Origin: Methanosarcinales archaeon
GTDB taxonomy: Bacteria; Omnitrophota; Gorgyraeia; Duberdicusellales; 4484-171
Direction: 5' to 3'
Length of the DNA stretch: 64,000 nucleotides
NCBI GenBank assembly: GCA_048634245.1
Contig: JAIWAR010000001.1
Coordinates: 13,889 to 77,888 of the forward strand
Part shown: in pieces, positions 1 through 39,047 of the stretch
How positions within the stretch are numbered: position 1 is the first letter of the stretch
How the letters are laid out: every line of letters starts with the position of its first letter
The notes under the pieces: generated by a model
Database searches by the model: none
Told to the model about the DNA's origin: nothing
Seen by the model: the letters and a program-made list of their open reading frames with translations, nothing else
Made by a program: the position numbers and the translations under genes

Positions 1-40
1 CTTTTGCCGATTTTTCAGATAAATTTAGGAATGTAAATTA

Positions 41-61
41 GTCCATAGTCCATAGTCCATG
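41..61 (+). repeat. Tandem heptamer (GTCCATA)x~3 ending in the palindrome GTCCATGGAC, about 30 nt upstream of the gspG start
   Basis: Read directly: gtccata gtccata gtccat g. GTCCATGGAC is self-complementary. Confidence 0.8.
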
Positions 62-87
62 GACGGGGGTTAAAAAAAGGGGGAGAG

Positions 88-525
88 ATGAGAAAAAAAC
101 AAAAGAAGTTATCGATTATCGACTATCGACTATCGACTAAACAGGGGTTTACCTTGATTGAGCTGGTATTGGTAGTAATTATCATCGGAGCTTTGGCTGC
201 GATGATAATGCCCAGGCTTGCCGGCCGTTCAGAACAGGCGAAGGTTGCCGTCGCTAAAACGGATATCAGCGCGAATATGGCTACGGCATTAGACCTTTAT
301 GAATTGGATAATGGCCGGTATCCGGGGAATCTTCAAATGCTTTTAACCGATCCCGGCGGATTAAGCAATTGGAATGGGCCTTATATTAAAAGAAAATCTA
401 TTGATCCTTGGGGACGTGAGTATCAATATAGATATCCTTCGTCTAAAGGCAGGGATTATGATTTGTATTCGTTAGGCCCGGACGGGGTAGAAAGCGGTGA
501 TGATATTACCAATTGGAAAGATTAG
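88..525 (+). CDS. gspG: Major pseudopilin, GspG / type IV pilin-like, with an unusually long 19 aa leader
   Basis: Prepilin N-methylation motif G-FTLIELVLVVIIIGALAA with Glu at +5. C-terminal GspG-like DPWG...Y.Y region. A GGGGGAGAG ribosome-binding site precedes the ATG. Confidence 0.8.
   Translation: MRKKQKKLSIIDYRLSTKQGFTLIELVLVVIIIGALAAMIMPRLAGRSEQAKVAVAKTDISANMATALDLYELDNGRYPGNLQMLLTDPGGLSNWNGPYIKRKSIDPWGREYQYRYPSSKGRDYDLYSLGPDGVESGDDITNWKD
110..139 (+). repeat. In-frame heptanucleotide array (TATCGAC)x4 plus TA inside the gspG leader-peptide coding region
   Basis: tatcgat tatcgac tatcgac tatcgac ta. Encodes LSIIDYRLST. A 29/30-identical copy lies at 35771..35800. Confidence 0.9.
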
Positions 526-958
526 TTTCGTCGCGCGCAAACGCAATACGAAAAACGGGGCTACTTTACTTGAAGTTATGATCAGTATTGTTGTTTTATC
601 AATGGGTTTGGTTTTAATCTTACAAGGATTTCTTTATTGTCTTAATTGTCTGCGAATTTCAGAAGACAATTTAAAGGCTAGCCTGGCGGCCGGAAATAAA
701 ATGGCTCAGGCACGAATACAGGCAAAAGAGGATTGGGATACTTTTGAGAGAGGATTAAACGAACGGTTTAAGTTTGAGGGTTTAAAATGTATCTGGGATA
801 TAGAGGTAGAGCAAGTTATCTGGGATTCAGAAGAGATACCTCAAAGCTATGAATACTTAAATGAGGTTAAAACTTCCTTGTCCTGGGAAGAGGGGAGAAG
901 AAAAGGCGCGATTTTTCTTACTACGTATATGAGGAGTCCCATTGAAGTTAATCCATAG
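497..958 (+). CDS. Minor pseudopilin (GspI/GspH-like); true start probably internal
   Basis: Prepilin cleavage/methylation motif NG-ATLLEVMISIVVLSMG followed by a hydrophobic helix. Confidence 0.55.
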   Translation: MMILPIGKISFVARKRNTKNGATLLEVMISIVVLSMGLVLILQGFLYCLNCLRISEDNLKASLAAGNKMAQARIQAKEDWDTFERGLNERFKFEGLKCIWDIEVEQVIWDSEEIPQSYEYLNEVKTSLSWEEGRRKGAIFLTTYMRSPIEVNP

Positions 959-1679: not shown

Positions 1680-1741
1680 AATCGCCGTGCGTTAAAAATC
1701 TTTTCACGCAATATGCAATACGATATACGCAATACGGAAAA

Positions 1742-6767: not shown

Positions 6768-6831
6768 TTAAATGATGCTATGGCGATATTACAAAATAAA
6801 AAAGAAGCACGGGAATGACAAATACTAAATT

Positions 6832-9502: not shown

Positions 9503-10167
9503 AGAGGGAAGGGATTATTCTTGTAGATAAACCTAAGGGGATTACCTCGCATGATGTAGTTGATATTGTGCGGAGGCGCCTTAAGATTAAAAAAGTAGGC
9601 CATGCAGGGACTCTTGATCCATTAGCTCAAGGGTTATTAATTATTCTGGTGGGTAAGTGTACGAAGCTATTTTCTAAATTTTCCGGTTTAGACAAAGAAT
9701 ATTCCGGAGTATTAAAGCTGGGGGAAGTTACGACCACAGGAGATTCTCAAGGGGAAGTTACCCAAAAGAAGGAGTGGGCTCAGATTAGCGAGGATAGGAT
9801 AAGGGAGGCATTTTCTTTGTTCATCGGCGAGACAAAGCAGGTTCCTCCTATGGTTAGCGCTTTAAGAGTAGGAGGTAAGAGGCTTTATAAGTTAGCCCGT
9901 CGCGGTATCGTGGTAGAAAGAACTCCTCGAAAAATAAAAATATATTCTTTGGAGATATTAAAGATAGATCTTCCTTTTGTTGAGTTTCGTCTCCATTGTT
10001 CTAAGGGGACATATGTAAGAAAGTTAGCTGAGGATATCGGTGAGAAATTGGGGTGCGGAGCTCATATGGTGAAAATATTACGCCTGAGCATAGGTTCTTT
10101 TGAACTGGGCAAGGCAATAGCTTTGGATGATATCAATGAAAGTCATCTCCAGCAGATTACCTTTTAA
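9499..10167 (+). CDS. truB: tRNA pseudouridine(55) synthase
   Basis: KPKGITSHDVVDIVRRRLKIKKVGHAGTLDPLAQGLL catalytic motif. Confidence 0.9.
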   Translation: MKREGIILVDKPKGITSHDVVDIVRRRLKIKKVGHAGTLDPLAQGLLIILVGKCTKLFSKFSGLDKEYSGVLKLGEVTTTGDSQGEVTQKKEWAQISEDRIREAFSLFIGETKQVPPMVSALRVGGKRLYKLARRGIVVERTPRKIKIYSLEILKIDLPFVEFRLHCSKGTYVRKLAEDIGEKLGCGAHMVKILRLSIGSFELGKAIALDDINESHLQQITF

Positions 10168-34780: not shown

Positions 34781-35225
34781 GCTTAAAGTAATTGGGGTAG
34801 CGGCTTTACCCATTTTTGAGCTGCGCGGTGCTATTCCTCTGGGAGTGTCTTTAGGTATGCCCTTAGGACGTATCTACTTTTTGTCTCTTTTAGGTAATTT
34901 AATTCCCGTTCTACCTTTATTATTACTCTTTAAATATTTTTTTCATCATTTACAGAATATAAAATTCGTCGGTAAGTTTTTTGAGTGGTGGTTTTACAGG
35001 GTAGAGAAAAAGTCAAAGCTTGTTGAGCGTTGGGGTTTTTGGGGTTTAGTCCTTTTTGTGGCAATACCAATGCCGGTAACCGGAGCCTGGACCGGAACGG
35101 CAGCGGCAACGTTATTTGAGCTGTCAACGAGAAAAGCCTTTTTGGCGATCTTAATAGGTGTTGCTATCGCCGGGATAATAGTAAGTTTAGTGGCTAATTG
35201 CGCGGGGGCATTGATAGCCGGGTGA
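34758..35225 (+). CDS. Small polytopic membrane protein (COG2426-like)
   Basis: Four predicted TM helices. PIFELRGAIPLG motif. Confidence 0.5.
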   Translation: MSMVGVNELKVIGVAALPIFELRGAIPLGVSLGMPLGRIYFLSLLGNLIPVLPLLLLFKYFFHHLQNIKFVGKFFEWWFYRVEKKSKLVERWGFWGLVLFVAIPMPVTGAWTGTAAATLFELSTRKAFLAILIGVAIAGIIVSLVANCAGALIAG

Positions 35226-36073
35226 ATTGTAAAATGGCAGAAATAGTAGAGAAAAGAATCTTAGTCGATAGTTTAGGGGTAAGAATTATCCAATTGAAGG
35301 TAAGAGCTCCTTCTATTGCTGAAAAAGCAAAACCAGGCCAGTTTGTGGTTCTGATGACGGGCGAGGAAGGAGAAAGGATACCGTTAACTGTGGTTGAGGG
35401 GGACACAAAGAAGGGTGTTATTACCTTAATTGTTCAAGAAGCGGGGTTAACTACCAAGCTTTTAGGCGCTTTAGAGGTGGGAAAATCCCTTTACGCTTTA
35501 GTCGGCCCCCTAGGACATGCCACTGAGATGAAAAAATACGGAAAAGTAATTTTGGTGGGAGGCGGAGTTGGCATTGCCGAGATTTATCCCGTAGCAAAAG
35601 GGCTGAATAAAGCTGGAAATCACATAACTACTATATTAGGAGCAAGGACAAAAGATCTGTTAATTCTGGAAGAAGAGTTAGGGGCGATATCCGATCAGTT
35701 GCTTATTGCTACCGATGATGGTTCTTATGGGCAAAAAGGCTTTACCACTGATATCCTGAAGAATCTTCTCTATCGACTATCGACTATCGACTATCGACTA
35801 ATTTACGCTGTCGGCCCTATTCCCATGATGAGAAATGTCTCTTTAGTTACTAAAGATTCAGGGATAAAAACTTTGGTATCTTTAAATTCTTTAATGGTTG
35901 ATGCTACCGGTATGTGCGGAAGCTGCCGGGTTACTGTGGGCGGTGAGGTTAAATTTACTTGCGTAGACGGTCCGGAATTTGACGCTTCTTTAGTTGATTG
36001 GGATGAATTAACCAAGAGAAATAAAATATACGCTGAAAAAGAAAAACATATCTGTAATCTTTATAAATTATGA
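35198..36073 (+). CDS. nfnA: NfnA / sulfide dehydrogenase beta-like (PyrK-family FAD/[2Fe-2S] subunit); start probably at MAEIVEK (35233)
   Basis: FNR-like fold with a C-terminal CGSC...C cluster motif. Paired with the downstream GltD-like gene. Contains the heptamer array at 35771..35800. Confidence 0.75.
   Translation: MRGGIDSRVNCKMAEIVEKRILVDSLGVRIIQLKVRAPSIAEKAKPGQFVVLMTGEEGERIPLTVVEGDTKKGVITLIVQEAGLTTKLLGALEVGKSLYALVGPLGHATEMKKYGKVILVGGGVGIAEIYPVAKGLNKAGNHITTILGARTKDLLILEEELGAISDQLLIATDDGSYGQKGFTTDILKNLLYRLSTIDYRLIYAVGPIPMMRNVSLVTKDSGIKTLVSLNSLMVDATGMCGSCRVTVGGEVKFTCVDGPEFDASLVDWDELTKRNKIYAEKEKHICNLYKL
35771..35800 (+). repeat. In-frame heptanucleotide array (TATCGAC)x4 plus TA inside nfnA
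   Basis: 29/30 identical to 110..139. Encodes YRLSTIDYRL in the same codon phase. Confidence 0.9.
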
Positions 36074-37491
36074 GAAAAGAACCGGTAAAAGTAAAAGAAG
36101 TAGATCCGGGCCTTCGGGTGGGCAATTTTGACGAGGTTGTCTTAGGCTACAGCGAGGAAGATGCTCTTATCGAAGCTAACCGGTGTATTCAGTGCAAGAA
36201 TCCTACTTGTATTGCCGGTTGTCCCGTGGCTATTGATATAAAAAAATTTATCTATCAAATTACTCAAAAAGACTATACCGGTGCTTACTTTACAATTAGA
36301 GAAAGGAATGATTTTCCTTCTATTTGCGGAAGGATTTGTCCGGCTGAATATCAATGCCGTAAAGCCTGTGTATTTAGCAAAAAGGGCCAGCCTTTTGCCT
36401 CTAAAGAAGCAATAAATATTCATTTGCTAGAGCGGTTTATTGGCGATTATGGGATAAAGCATTGTAGCCAGGCTCAACACTCAACGACTAACGCTCAACA
36501 TAACAAGAAAGTAGCAATCGTAGGTTCCGGGCCGGCTGGTTTGTGTGTAGCCGGAGAGCTAGGCCGTCAAGGTATAAAATCAATTATTTTTGAAGGACTG
36601 CATAAGACCGGAGGAGTTCTCAGATATGGTATACCGCCTTTTAGGCTGCCCCGGGATATTTTGGATTTTGAGATAGATTATCTTAAAAAGCTAGGGGTTG
36701 AATTTGCGCTTAATGTTATTATAGGGAGGACGAAGACTTTGGACGAACTCTTCTTGGATAATTTTTCAGCTGTGTTTCTAGGCTTGGGTGCCGGGGTGCC
36801 GTCTTTTTTAAAGATAAAGGGCGAGAACTTATGTAATGTTTATTCGGCTAATGAGTTTTTAACCCGCAATAATCTTATGTCGGCATATAAATTTCCTCAA
36901 TTTCATACTCCGATTAATGTCGGTGAGCATATAATTGTTATTGGCGGAGGCAATACCGCCATGGATGCGGCCAGAGTTGCTCTTCGTTTGCAGAAGATAA
37001 GAGGAATTAAACCGAATACTACAGTTTTTTACCGGCGTACTGAGACGGAGATGCCGGCAAGGCGCTTGGAAATAGAGCATGCTAAGGAAGAAGGTATAAA
37101 CTTTAAATTTTTAGTTCAGCCAAGAGGGTTTATTGGCGATGAGTCGGGATTTGTAAGGAAAATAGAGTGCTTAGAGTGCTATTTGGGCGAAGAAGATTCG
37201 TCGGGGAGAAGAAGGCCTGTGCCTATTGAGGGAAGTGAATTTATAAAAGATTGCGATGTGGCTATTGTAGCAGTTGGTTTGGGTGCAAATACTATTCTTA
37301 CCGGTGTTACTCCTCAATTGAAGGTTGATAAATATTCGGATTTAATAGTTGATTCTAAGACTATGCAGACTTCGCTTAAAGGTGTTTATGCCGGGGGAGA
37401 TATAGTTGGTGGTGAAGGCACTGTTATTGAAGCAATGGGCATGGCTAAGATTGCAGCCAAAAGTATTATCGGTTATCTTTTAAATAAATAA
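36070..37491 (+). CDS. nfnB: NfnB / glutamate synthase small-chain-like NADPH oxidoreductase (2x[4Fe-4S], FAD)
   Basis: CIQCKNPTCIAGCP ferredoxin-like cysteines. VAIVGSGPAGL dinucleotide-binding motif. GltD/SudA family. Confidence 0.8.
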   Translation: MRKEPVKVKEVDPGLRVGNFDEVVLGYSEEDALIEANRCIQCKNPTCIAGCPVAIDIKKFIYQITQKDYTGAYFTIRERNDFPSICGRICPAEYQCRKACVFSKKGQPFASKEAINIHLLERFIGDYGIKHCSQAQHSTTNAQHNKKVAIVGSGPAGLCVAGELGRQGIKSIIFEGLHKTGGVLRYGIPPFRLPRDILDFEIDYLKKLGVEFALNVIIGRTKTLDELFLDNFSAVFLGLGAGVPSFLKIKGENLCNVYSANEFLTRNNLMSAYKFPQFHTPINVGEHIIVIGGGNTAMDAARVALRLQKIRGIKPNTTVFYRRTETEMPARRLEIEHAKEEGINFKFLVQPRGFIGDESGFVRKIECLECYLGEEDSSGRRRPVPIEGSEFIKDCDVAIVAVGLGANTILTGVTPQLKVDKYSDLIVDSKTMQTSLKGVYAGGDIVGGEGTVIEAMGMAKIAAKSIIGYLLNK

Positions 37492-37511: not shown

Positions 37512-39047
37512 TTAGAGCAGGGGGAGGTATTTTTTAAGTTCGTGCTGAGTGATCTGGATTCGATACTCTTCCCACTCTTTCTTTTTATTGAATAGAAATC
37601 TGCTAAAGATATGTTCACCAAGAGTATCACGTACAAACTTGCTATTTTCAGTTTCCGTGATAGCTTCAAGAAGATTCCCCGGTAAAGACGTAAGCCCTCT
37701 TCTTTCTCTTTCTTCCATAGCCATATGGTAGATATTAGGTTCAACCGGCGGGGTAAGCTTATATTTTTTTTCTATGCCTTCTAGCCCGGCAGCCAGCATT
37801 ACAGCAAAGGCAAGATAGGGGTTGCAAGCCGGATCCGGACATCTTAGTTCTACCCGGGTTGCTTTTTCATTTCCCGGCCGATATGAGGGAACGCGAAGCA
37901 GGGCAGTGCGGTTTTTTTGAGCCCAAGAAGCGTATACCGGAGCTTCAAAACCCGTAACCAGCCGTTTGTAGGAGTTTACCCACTGAGCAGTCAAAGAACA
38001 AATTTCCCGGGCATGTTTTAACTGTCCGGCAATAAAGCTTTTAGCAATTGTTGATAAGTGATGTTTGTCTTTTTTGTCGAAAAAAGCATTTTGCTTTTTC
38101 GTAAATAGAGATTGATGGACATGCATTCCTGAACCATTCACTCCAAAGAGGGGTTTTGGCATAAAAGTAGCGTATACGCCATTCTGCTGAGCGATTTCTT
38201 TAATTACGTATTTACTGGTTATTACAGCATCAGCCATGGTAAGGGCATCGTTATATTTAAGGTCGATTTCATGCTGGGATGGCGCAACTTCGTGGTGGCT
38301 TGCTTCCATAGGTATGCCTAGCTGTTCTAAGGTTCTTACGGTTCTATTTCTTAAGGTATTGGCTAAATCATTAGGTATTAATTCAAAATAAGAACCTTCA
38401 TCAATAATTTCCGGTTTTTTGTCAGATTTAAAATAAAAATATTCTATTTCCGGCCCCACATAGAATGTAAGGCCCATTTTTTCAGTCCTTGCCATTATCC
38501 GTTTTAAAACATGGCGGGGGTCACCGGCATAAGGAGTGTGGTCAGGATTGAGTATGTCGCAGAACATTCTGACAATTGGGTCTGTTTCTGTTGTCCAGGG
38601 TAATATTTTAAAAGTAGTTGGGTCCGGTAAGGCAATGATATCAGATTCTTGAGCTTCGGCAAACCCGGTAACTGAAGAACCATCAAAGCCTTTTCCGTGT
38701 TCTAAGGCATCCTTTAATTCCCCTTGAGTGATAGAGACGCACTTTAGAGTTCCTAAGATGTCTGCGAACCAAAGCTGTATTATTTTTATGTCGCTTCTAT
38801 ACACTTTCTCCAAGACTTCTTTTATAGCTTCTTTTCTGGGTTTTTTATCCGAAAGAACAAGCTGTGTTTGAGAGTATTTTTCTGTTTTGATTTCTCTTTC
38901 TGAATGAACCTGGTTTTTAGGTATTATGTATCGGTTTCCTACTTTTTCAGCATACAGATTTCCGTTTTTTATACGCTCTACAACAGCTTGACGGGAAATC
39001 CTTAAGATCTTTGCGGCTTGGGCCGGGCTTAAATATTCTTGTTCCAT
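37512..39047 (-). CDS. glnA: Glutamine synthetase catalytic protein fused to an N-terminal excisionase/MerR-type HTH
   Basis: N-terminus LSPAQAAKILRISRQAVVERIKNGNL (HTH). GS signature KPLFGVNGSGMHVHQSLF and a beta-grasp region. It is the only minus-strand gene in the window. Confidence 0.85.
   Translation of the reverse strand: MEQEYLSPAQAAKILRISRQAVVERIKNGNLYAEKVGNRYIIPKNQVHSEREIKTEKYSQTQLVLSDKKPRKEAIKEVLEKVYRSDIKIIQLWFADILGTLKCVSITQGELKDALEHGKGFDGSSVTGFAEAQESDIIALPDPTTFKILPWTTETDPIVRMFCDILNPDHTPYAGDPRHVLKRIMARTEKMGLTFYVGPEIEYFYFKSDKKPEIIDEGSYFELIPNDLANTLRNRTVRTLEQLGIPMEASHHEVAPSQHEIDLKYNDALTMADAVITSKYVIKEIAQQNGVYATFMPKPLFGVNGSGMHVHQSLFTKKQNAFFDKKDKHHLSTIAKSFIAGQLKHAREICSLTAQWVNSYKRLVTGFEAPVYASWAQKNRTALLRVPSYRPGNEKATRVELRCPDPACNPYLAFAVMLAAGLEGIEKKYKLTPPVEPNIYHMAMEERERRGLTSLPGNLLEAITETENSKFVRDTLGEHIFSRFLFNKKKEWEEYRIQITQHELKKYLPLL

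Follow-up and report, generated by a model that had tools for sequence, protein, structure and literature searches.

We analysed a stretch of 64,000 nucleotides (hereafter the window) from contig JAIWAR010000001.1 (positions 13,889 to 77,888, forward strand) of assembly GCA_048634245.1, which is named Methanosarcinales archaeon at NCBI and is placed in the bacterial phylum Omnitrophota by GTDB. Two genes of this window share a block of tandem heptamers, (TATCGAC)n. One is gspG, encoding the major pseudopilin of a type II secretion-like system, and the other is nfnA, encoding the small subunit of an NADH-dependent ferredoxin:NADP oxidoreductase (Nfn), which is directly followed by the gene for the large subunit, nfnB. 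A previous reading, made from the letters and their open reading frames (ORFs) without database searches (the sequence-only reading), had drawn attention to these two blocks, and its assignment of the host ORFs to GspG and to a PyrK-like NfnA was borne out by matches in Pfam and PDB. The best PDB matches of NfnA are the Nfn small subunits 5jca_S (E=5.7e-88) and 4ylf_A. The start codon of this gene is uncertain (TTG 35198 or ATG 35231). An exact-sequence lookup of GspG gave no match; a homology search did recover the protein (P0121), and the named orthologues of GspG and NfnA point to Omnitrophota as the source phylum. The features that bear on the arrays are given in Table 1.

Table 1. Heptamer arrays of the window and the genes that carry or flank them (SD, Shine-Dalgarno; TRF, Tandem Repeats Finder)
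Feature	Position	Strand	Description
Left inverted arm, (TAGTCCA)x3.1	39..60	+	Found by TRF, perfect-repeat scan, lag-7 scan and pair polarity
Spacer of the inverted pair, 49 nt	61..109	+	SD-like GGGGGAGAG (79-87), gspG ATG (88) and codons for MRKKQKK
gspG, major pseudopilin ORF	88..525	+	145 aa; Pfam T2SSG and N_methyl; PDB GspG matches; mature F at residue 21
Right, GACT-oriented arm, (TATCGAC)x4.3, first unit TATCGAT	110..139	+	Translated as LSIIDYRLST in the GspG prepilin leader
Residual ACGCAATACG, 1.4 units	541..550	+	Leader of the next pseudopilin, ORF 497-958
Degenerate (ACGCAAT)x4.4 array	1706..1736	+	62-nt gap between ORF 942-1679 and ORF 1742-2698
nfnA, PyrK-like small subunit of NADH-dependent ferredoxin:NADP oxidoreductase	35198..36073	+	291 aa; DHODB_Fe-S_bind and NAD_binding_1
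nfnA array, perfect (TATCGAC)x4 plus TA	35771..35800	+	YRLSTIDYRL; helix end, turn and start of the strand before the AVGP motif
nfnB, large subunit	36070..37491	+	Fer4_20 and Pyr_redox_2; directly follows nfnA
nfnB linker array, degenerate TCAACAC-like x4	36473..36502	+	QHSTTNAQHN, inter-domain linker of NfnB

The two 30-bp blocks lie on one strand and are identical at 29 positions out of 30, as had been reported, which is far above chance: the 14-mer (TATCGAC)2, with at most one mismatch, has 6 matches in the window against 0.01 expected, and none of 100 shuffles reached 6. The first block begins with TATCGAT, followed by three TATCGAC units plus TA, and the second is perfect, extending to 31 bp if the preceding C is included. 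The sequence-only reading placed both blocks in the same codon phase. This is not the case, the block beginning at codon position 2 in gspG and at codon position 1 in nfnA. Both are translated into cyclic permutations of IDYRLST because a 7-nt unit runs through the three frames every 21 nt. The same array can be written (GACTATC)n, i.e. as one of several units with a GACT core. A scan of the window by lag gave three strong regions at lag 7, whereas lags 6 and 8-11 gave none. TRF delimited period-7 arrays at 39-60, 110-139, 1706-1736, 35770-35800 and 36473-36500, and in total the window holds two TATCGAC sites, one related inverted array and three ACGCAAT-type sites. The inverted array, (TAGTCCA)x3, which pairs with the gspG array, had been overlooked. 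Neither TATCGAC site gave a match in the Rfam and tRNA scans.

The left arm of the gspG pair can also be read as (GTCCATA)n, an AGTC-core unit with one mismatch from the reverse complement of TATCGAC. This array is intergenic and begins 3 nt past the stop codon of gspF (34-36), the 3' end of gspF being recognised through its identity to two other Omnitrophota loci, L242 and L243 (loci used for comparison are designated by such numbers). The spacer has no relative in any locus compared, and a conserved mobile element was rejected on this ground. The right arm lengthens the GspG leader to 20 aa (MRKKQKKLSIIDYRLSTKQG, followed by the F of the mature protein), one residue more than first stated, while a survey of orthologue leaders gave a mode of 6-7 aa. 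Some of the long leaders among the orthologues display a 7-aa periodicity; in L243, the only one checked at the DNA level, it corresponds to (ACGCNNN)x5. In L242, a genome with 97% average nucleotide identity (ANI) to that of the window, the leader preceding the same F is MKNRKG. Positions 37-141 of the window are non-homologous to L242, while the flanks on both sides match closely, and the stretch replaced in L242 spans from the gspF stop codon to the GGG TTT ACC of the cleavage site. Folded as RNA, the two arms of the window join with a C-C mismatch in each unit (dG -23 kcal/mol, z = -1.5). With such a z-score, and with arms that are not kept complementary elsewhere, the case for a selected RNA hairpin between the two arrays was judged weak.

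Other sites of the secretion genes also carry heptamers. The leader of the minor pseudopilin that follows gspG is 42 bp longer in L242 than in the window (6 units = 14 codons) and includes (ACGCAAT)x4.4. The array at 1706-1736 stops 5 nt ahead of the ATG at 1742, with no clear SD sequence; the L242 counterpart of the ORF starting there (1742-2698) carries T2SSK_1st. The same module, array-ACGAAAAA-ATG, is also found in L242 upstream of an ATP-synt_DE_N (atpC-like) gene. Apart from the arrays, three observations were made in this region. In L242, a terminator-like hairpin, AAATACTTGCACCCCGGGGGTGCAAGTATTT, lies between gspF and gspG (~9880-9940), where the window (37-87) has the heptamer pair, and the two strains may differ in gspF-gspG co-transcription. 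In the GspG orthologues P0155 and P0221, the long leaders hold an upstream KGFAPLE motif before the real GFTL(I/V)EL, which is cleaved between G and F; KGFAPLE resembles a second, degenerate prepilin cleavage/N-methylation site and may be left over from a duplicated signal. Finally, L242 (6533-9875) and L243 (6620-9954) possess a gspE/pilB-like ATPase gene (MshEN and T2SSE) between F-ATPase beta-like and epsilon (ATP-synt_DE_N) genes, with gspF-gspG coming after the epsilon gene. This synteny lies upstream of the stretch matching window position 1, and an ATP synthase operon interleaved with secretion/pilus genes is thus kept in two fairly distant Omnitrophota.

In nfnA, the 3' end of the block re-encodes the conserved Y-x-L that opens a beta-strand. 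An AlphaFold (AF2) model of NfnA, with a mean predicted local distance difference test score (pLDDT) of 87.9, gives the block a value of 75 against 92-94 on either side, the lowest of the region; in the 120 orthologues from Omnitrophota, what lies between LKELL and LIYAVGP is hypervariable. The claim that both blocks occupy insertion-tolerant sites therefore stands, one site being a cleaved leader and the other a hypervariable, lower-confidence loop. The block is not a clean 10-aa insertion, as had been proposed, since the net gain is 2 aa relative to solved homologues and 3 aa relative to short-loop orthologues. This loop falls into a short class (G-K-E-K-Y-D), classes of 9-10 residues that resemble translated heptamers, and a few larger ones. 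The DNA behind it in other lineages can be (NAACTTA)x5 (L271) or (GGGTWCA)x7.4 (L244), while the native DNA of the short class reads AAA TAC GAC CTT ATT TAT. Whatever the nfnA lineage, the array ends in a unit that overlaps the codon of the conserved Tyr in Y-x-L-I-Y.

The segment of the window type was seen in orthologues down to 69% identity, as HRPSTIDYRL or HRPSTMDYRL. According to the sequence-only reading, the same segment written in non-repetitive codons would have pointed to ancient conserved sequence; the segment is indeed present in orthologues, but its codons are repetitive, either perfect or slightly decayed. The block is exactly 30 bp long in the window, L239, L240 and L241 (independent sequences, from genomes 83-97% related). 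The nfnA gene of L241 has the identical perfect 31-mer, although identity over the surrounding 5 kb is ~79% and no more than 1.9% of the 31-nt windows agree fully between the two sequences. L239 and L240 (97% ANI) carry a decayed copy of equal length, with the units TGTCGAC, CATCGAC, TATTGAC and TATCGAC plus TA (3 substitutions out of 30). Separately from the array, we noted a stretch, ~34843-35946, covering the last part of the membrane-protein gene upstream and a large part of nfnA, that is clearly more diverged from L239/L240 than its surroundings: the identity of nfnA is ~94% vs. ~97% overall, and several 30-nt windows show 9-19 differences. This pattern suggests a putative recombination tract around nfnA.

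The same unit was also found in true pyrK genes. The pyrK of L118 (complete chromosome CP070837.1), which adjoins pyrD, and that of L035 both have, in the homologous loop and ahead of IYACGP, a perfect TATCGAC array of 33 nt. The L118 PyrK is 30% identical to the NfnA of the window. The DNA identity between the two pyrK genes is 58%, with no identical 33-mer other than the array. As a side observation, each has a second in-frame array in another loop: (AGTTCAC)x4.4, translated as IVHSSQFIVHS, in L118 (3961-3991), and (ACCCAAA)x4.7, translated as PKPKTQNPKP, in L035 (191-223). One small gene is therefore able to host two arrays. In the linker of nfnB, L240 has a TCAACAC-like array, as in the window, while that of L239 is a perfect (GCAATAC)x4 of equal length; L239 differs from the window and L240 at 13 of 30 positions, several of the differences being parallel across units, and the flanks are identical. 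In more distant relatives the linker is non-repetitive and of exactly equal length, 17 residues. Elsewhere in the window, three further features were recorded. On the minus strand, 37512-39047 encodes a glutamine synthetase with an N-terminal HTH_17 (excisionase-like) domain, and Pfam matches show that this fusion is kept in L239, L240, L270 and L271. At least 30 extra nt are found around position 6789 (~6789-6818) relative to 97%-ANI relatives. Downstream of glnA (~39061), the window has ~6 nt where L239 has ~120 nt. Neither of these two length differences is heptamer-like.

We pooled the window with eleven loci of other Omnitrophota genomes (191 kb) and listed the tandem repeats of at least 2.8 copies. 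In this pool, 28 of 33 repeats have a period of 7, bearing in mind that most loci were chosen for holding an array and that some arrays are the same site in related genomes. Whatever the unit, 21 of the 28 arrays comprise 4.0-4.7 copies (~30-33 bp). At least eight units are involved, including TATCGAC, ACGCAAT, GTCCATM, ACCCAAA, AGCTGAG, AGTTCAC and GGGTWCA. Gene calls and Pfam matches distinguish three settings. Arrays are located directly upstream of start codons (before ATG 1742, the atpC-like gene of L242 and rpsP in L100, and 5-10 nt before a pilB/gspE-like ATG in L039 and L097), in prepilin leaders (gspG and the next pseudopilin, in several genomes), or in internal loops and linkers (nfnA, nfnB, pyrK and a KDO-transferase-like gene). 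When tallied against the gene calls, about 16 of the 28 arrays lie just upstream of a start codon or inside the first ~20 codons, and about half of the arrays in the Omnitrophota loci are translated. The rate of ORF starts downstream of arrays was 28%, vs. 29% at random positions, a test that is swamped by internal ATG and GTG codons in long ORFs. Between 97%-ANI strains, the arrays rank with the 30-nt windows that diverge most, although other such windows exist. No frameshifting variant in unit count was found among the strains compared, the only difference in array length being one of 42 bp.

To place the unit outside Omnitrophota, exact (TATCGAC)x3 was scanned in a species-representative genome set and in metagenome contigs. 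Among the matches listed, genome contigs account for more than 118 and metagenome contigs for more than 120, from Acidobacteriota, Bacteroidota, Gemmatimonadota, Chloroflexota, Planctomycetota and lineages of the candidate phyla radiation (CPR). Deinococcota (Calidithermus), Spirochaetota (Brachyspira) and the cyanobacterium Tolypothrix are further carriers, as are at least six Omnitrophota. Other genomes possess 5-15 target-bearing contigs each, often with the array at a contig end. Contigs that start or end exactly in (TATCGAC)n were noted for Chitinophagales MAG-100 (L018, L022, L023, L049, L068 and others) and for L002 and L078; in some genomes the arrays, which must be many and long there, systematically break the assembly. 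The flanks of the matches are themselves rich in heptamers: 1.6 Mb of flanks contain 153 other perfect period-7 arrays against at most 48 for any other period, and counting all flanks of matches gives 153 + 258 period-7 arrays. Of the units located at least 150 bp from the target, 23% are within one mismatch of it (null 1.8%) and 35% contain GACT (~5% expected).

Small scans of viral contigs gave 17 target matches vs. 4 and 4 for two composition-matched control heptamers. Thus, any heptamer can form arrays, and TATCGAC is moderately favoured. The 17 contigs concerned (L245-L261, from IMG/VR) are viral or proviral and hold (TATCGAC)x3 or longer; 7 of them come from sample 3300045988. Phages may carry such arrays from host to host, or the arrays may mirror the composition of their hosts. 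The antisense strand of a TATCGAC array has TAG in all frames. By the crude open-frame rule that was used for coding status outside Omnitrophota, no open frame of 120 aa or more runs in reverse across any of 243 arrays. Single intergenic arrays outside Omnitrophota were sense to the flanking genes in 25 cases and antisense in 21, again by a crude measure.

Many arrays come as inverted pairs, and these pairs have a fixed polarity. All target arrays were turned to read TATCGAC before counting. An inverted (GTCGATA)-like array was found within 250 bp upstream for 50 of 202 internal target arrays, and downstream for 0 of 202; twelve control heptamers gave 0-2 in the same test. The 45 non-redundant pairs, among which is that of the window (39-60 / 110-139), all consist of an AGTC-core left arm (AGTCGAT, AGTCGTT, AGTCCAT, AGTCAAT or AGTCGGA), a spacer and a GACT-core right arm. 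The arm combination of the window is also found in Planctomycetales (L006, L110) and in L176. The spacers are mutually unrelated and measure 5-187 nt, half of them being under 40 nt, and the arms are not kept complementary (e.g. AGTCCAT or AGTCGTT opposite GACTATC). The polarity is also obeyed by the 11 non-target pairs with a recognisable core (11/11). It is further obeyed in 17 pairs whose units are stop-free both ways, which rules out stop codons as its cause. A crude longest-ORF measure of the flanking genes gave 27 of 37 pairs between co-directional genes and only 3 of 37 between divergent ones. With so few divergent genes, and with half of the spacers below 40 nt, sense 5' elements of divergent genes were likewise discarded as the cause. 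About three quarters of the arrays, including that of nfnA, are solo.

We propose that both blocks belong to a dispersed family of GACT-core heptanucleotide arrays that spans many phyla and is maintained by a copying process within and between arrays; taken as a whole, we hold this to be somewhat more probable than all else together. That we are dealing with a repeat family and not with a gene-specific feature is near-certain, and the mechanistic half is much less certain. Four observations characterise the family. Arrays inside ORFs are always turned so as to be free of stop codons, and they keep to permissive positions. Arrays of different units have settled repeatedly at one and the same position. 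Arrays turn over far faster than their flanks, yet can match across deeply diverged genes. Lastly, ORF length changes in frame, by steps of 21 or 42 bp. In addition, the alignments indicate that at two coding sites the arrays have overwritten native sequence, with length nearly constant.

As for the mechanism, the arrays would be generated and homogenised by lag-7 out-of-register copying, through slippage or template switching within arrays, and gene conversion between arrays probably adds to this homogenisation. An array would be most easily established where the native sequence resembles the unit. Such a likeness is seen in NfnA, where Y-D-L is encoded by TAC GAC CTT, to be compared with TATCGAC TA, and it may have seeded the array. 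Selection on the host protein would then leave sense-strand, stop-free arrays of in-frame length at permissive positions, which is the outcome observed. The IDYRLST peptide would have no function of its own, and the arrays would not act as phase-variation switches. Heptamers are the most abundant class of long simple sequence repeats, for which polymerase slippage has been proposed (Mrazek 2007, as summarised in PMC4679880 and PMC4692102). The mechanism suggested here is essentially Mrazek's slippage plus inter-array conversion.

Several points weigh against this proposal. Simple slippage does not predict that one unit should recur across phyla with a conserved GACT core, nor the preference for ~4 units, which holds for intergenic arrays and in Xanthomonas too, nor the strict polarity of the pairs (50 vs. 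0). The identity of the array between pyrK genes that share only 58% identity implies active maintenance or repeated acquisition. No conversion event from donor to recipient was directly observed in the compared loci. Moreover, the loci were collected for containing the target, which biases densities upward, and the coding calls outside Omnitrophota rest on the crude rule mentioned above. A dedicated, horizontally spreading, sequence-specific activity that writes or copies about four 7-nt units outward both ways from a site would jointly explain the AGTC-spacer-GACT polarity, the ~30-nt size whatever the unit, and the recurrence of one unit across phyla, from Omnitrophota to Acidobacteria, Bacteroidota, Deinococcota and Cyanobacteria. 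We consider it unlikely. If true, it would represent a new class of self-propagating DNA, and the coding copies would be collateral overwrites of permissive loops.

Other explanations were weighed against the repeat family with copying within and between arrays. The arrays might serve in cis as binding sites for a protein that recognises nucleic acid 7 nt at a time, such as a cold-shock-domain or S1-like protein with an oligonucleotide-binding (OB) fold, acting on mRNA near translation starts, the copies in loops being tolerated spill-over. MacGregor 2015 (PMC4679880) made this proposal for TAACTGA repeats, CspB binding heptamers with one protein per unit. A GACT core with three variable positions, a fixed period and ~4 units would fit a protein footprint, about 16 of the 28 Omnitrophota arrays (three pseudopilin leaders included) are close to a start codon, and no clear SD follows the (ACGCAAT)n-ACGAAAAA module. 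Yet the arrays of nfnA, nfnB, pyrK and the KDO-transferase-like gene are hundreds of nt from any start codon, single intergenic arrays outside Omnitrophota have no clear orientation bias (25 vs. 21), and sequences rewritten between close strains would be odd for a conserved operator, so that we rate this explanation as rather unlikely. The sequence-only reading favoured a slipped-strand contingency locus that would switch GspG, and separately NfnA, by one 7-nt unit. Its reasoning on the frame is correct: the unit is not a multiple of 3, and adding or removing one unit in silico brings early stops that truncate both products (near codon 20 in gspG, at codons 199-221 in nfnA). Phase variation also typically targets pilins, and contingency repeats of seven nucleotides are reported from Haemophilus (PMC8262952 and PMC2651432). 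The comparison of strains does not support this reading, however. All four nfnA alleles (window, L239, L240 and L241) have 30 bp, the sole indel observed between strains is 42 bp long and in frame, the arrays have only ~4 units, and the difference between strains at gspG is the replacement of the whole 5' region rather than a change in unit count. Furthermore, genes of central metabolism carry arrays, rpsP and atpC-like genes have them upstream, non-coding DNA has them too, and the carriers belong to many phyla. We give very little credence to a switch of this kind.

The sequence-only reading had also suggested a tiny insertion element copied between genes. What holds is that the blocks belong to a dispersed multi-copy family with many sites in many genomes; what does not is the element itself, which would have neither defined ends, nor target-site duplication (TSD), nor conserved interior. 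A more elaborate version would be a discrete element resembling a miniature inverted-repeat transposable element (MITE) or a doublet of repetitive extragenic palindromic (REP) sequences (REPIN), with heptamer arrays as terminal inverted repeats, a transposase acting in trans, and solo arrays as remnants. The pair polarity would be expected of it, for other units as well as the target, and 97%-ANI strains either have or lack the window's pair with its spacer (37-141) as one block. The arrays are patchily distributed over the phylogeny, they occur on viral contigs, and most pairs lie between co-directional genes, as REP elements mostly do. The unrelated spacers of very variable length, however, often include a native SD and ATG or terminator-like hairpins, complementarity is not kept between arms, and most arrays are solo. 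Neither the flanks of the gspG module (GTAAAT ... AACAGG) nor those of the nfnA array (CTTCTC ... ATTTAC) show the direct repeat of a TSD, and the coding arrays overwrite native sequence at constant length. Such an element is quite improbable in our view. As for an assembly or sequencing artefact, or a chance duplicate, the frequent position of arrays at the ends of contigs in metagenome-assembled genomes (MAGs) does indicate that assemblers struggle with them. The array is nevertheless found at the same place in independent assemblies of other samples (L241, and in degenerate form L239 and L240), in isolate genomes and in one complete chromosome, with frames intact on both sides and a count that no shuffle matched; this explanation deserves practically no weight.

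These arrays add constraints on how heptanucleotide repeats may arise. Arrays on opposite strands always face outward (~60 vs. 0), which is due neither to stop codons nor to the orientation of flanking genes. Arrays in conserved enzymes offer natural before/after comparisons, with length-neutral overwriting and concerted switching of units within a 97%-ANI species, and culturable carriers, such as Calidithermus chliarophilus and Spirosoma telluris, exist for experiments. On the practical side, the arrays break MAG assemblies at contig ends, confuse the calling of start codons and make signal peptides longer, and unrelated proteins come to look spuriously alike where both carry IDYRLST or one of its permutations. 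A search of the available literature found no mention of the TATCGAC unit, of its peptide or of heptamer repeats in Omnitrophota. The rule of outward polarity, the four-unit mode in units unable to form a G-quadruplex (G4), and the recurrent, length-neutral occupation of loops in conserved enzymes also appear to be unreported.

Two known systems share some features with these arrays. REP elements are imperfect palindromes of ~20-35 nt, with a conserved doublet spacing and a link to the RAYT transposase (REP-associated tyrosine transposase); they and the REPINs were reportedly treated by Bertels and Rainey in 2011. Short dispersed repeats and inverted doublets of fixed polarity, mainly between co-directional genes, are common to both systems, but the arms are here tandem heptamers and the spacers are unrelated. 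The heptanucleotide repeats of hmw1A in Haemophilus influenzae are slipped-strand contingency loci (PMC8262952 and PMC2651432). There too a 7-nt tandem unit lies in or next to a gene for a surface structure, where one unit more or less would change expression; in contrast, no polymorphism in unit count was seen here, the tracts are short, the hosts include housekeeping genes and the carriers belong to many phyla.

The likeness is closer with the dispersed heptanucleotide repeats. The short tandemly repeated repetitive (STRR) heptanucleotides of heterocystous cyanobacteria were reportedly described by Mazel and co-workers in 1990 (cited in PMC4692102). They are also dispersed tandem heptamers with several unit families per genome, and (TATCGAC)n itself occurs in Tolypothrix genomes. 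In the Tolypothrix loci, 22 of 35 repeats have a period of 7, with 5-22 copies. Their units include GTCCCCA, of the classical CCCCAGT/GGGGACT family (units as relayed by Rehm et al.). STRR arrays tend to be longer and have been described from intergenic DNA. The likeness is one of pattern only. To our knowledge, no function or mechanism has been accepted for heptanucleotide repeats since that description in 1990.

TAACTGA direct repeats are known from marine Beggiatoaceae, Cyanobacteria and Bacteroidetes (MacGregor 2015, PMC4679880). As with TATCGAC, one heptamer is favoured, in short sets of direct repeats with a patchy distribution across phyla, for which horizontal spread is suspected; TAACTGA forms sets of 2-6 copies at very many sites per genome. 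Many sets are found a few nt upstream of starts, often without an SD. Within ORFs the only orientation is the one free of stops, so that a repeat of 7 aa results (LSVISYQ for TAACTGA, IDYRLST here), mostly at the periphery of proteins. The differences lie in the unit (TATCGAC or another GACT-core unit) and in the host phylum, Omnitrophota. Moreover, several unit families coexist here, while related heptamers are rare in Beggiatoa, and our arrays recur in given loops of conserved enzymes. For TAACTGA, a single indirect (inverted) repeat is on record, as against ~25% of inverted pairs here.

Rehm et al. (2015, PMC4692102) described GGGAATC and GGGGA(C/T)T repeats, likewise heptameric, from Xanthomonas and Nostoc. 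These share the preference for four units, the orthologous positions at which sequence and length vary widely between close relatives, and occasional inverted pairs; the Nostoc unit GGGGACT even has the GACT core. These units are G-rich, and their four-unit preference was credited to the G4, a structure that TATCGAC and ACGCAAT cannot form. A preference for ~4 units in heptamers of the latter kind undercuts the G4 explanation given for Xanthomonas. Dispersed heptamer families are mostly intergenic, whereas about half of the arrays are translated in Omnitrophota, a difference in habit and not in kind. TATCGAC arrays belong with STRR, TAACTGA and GGGAATC among the dispersed heptanucleotide repeats.

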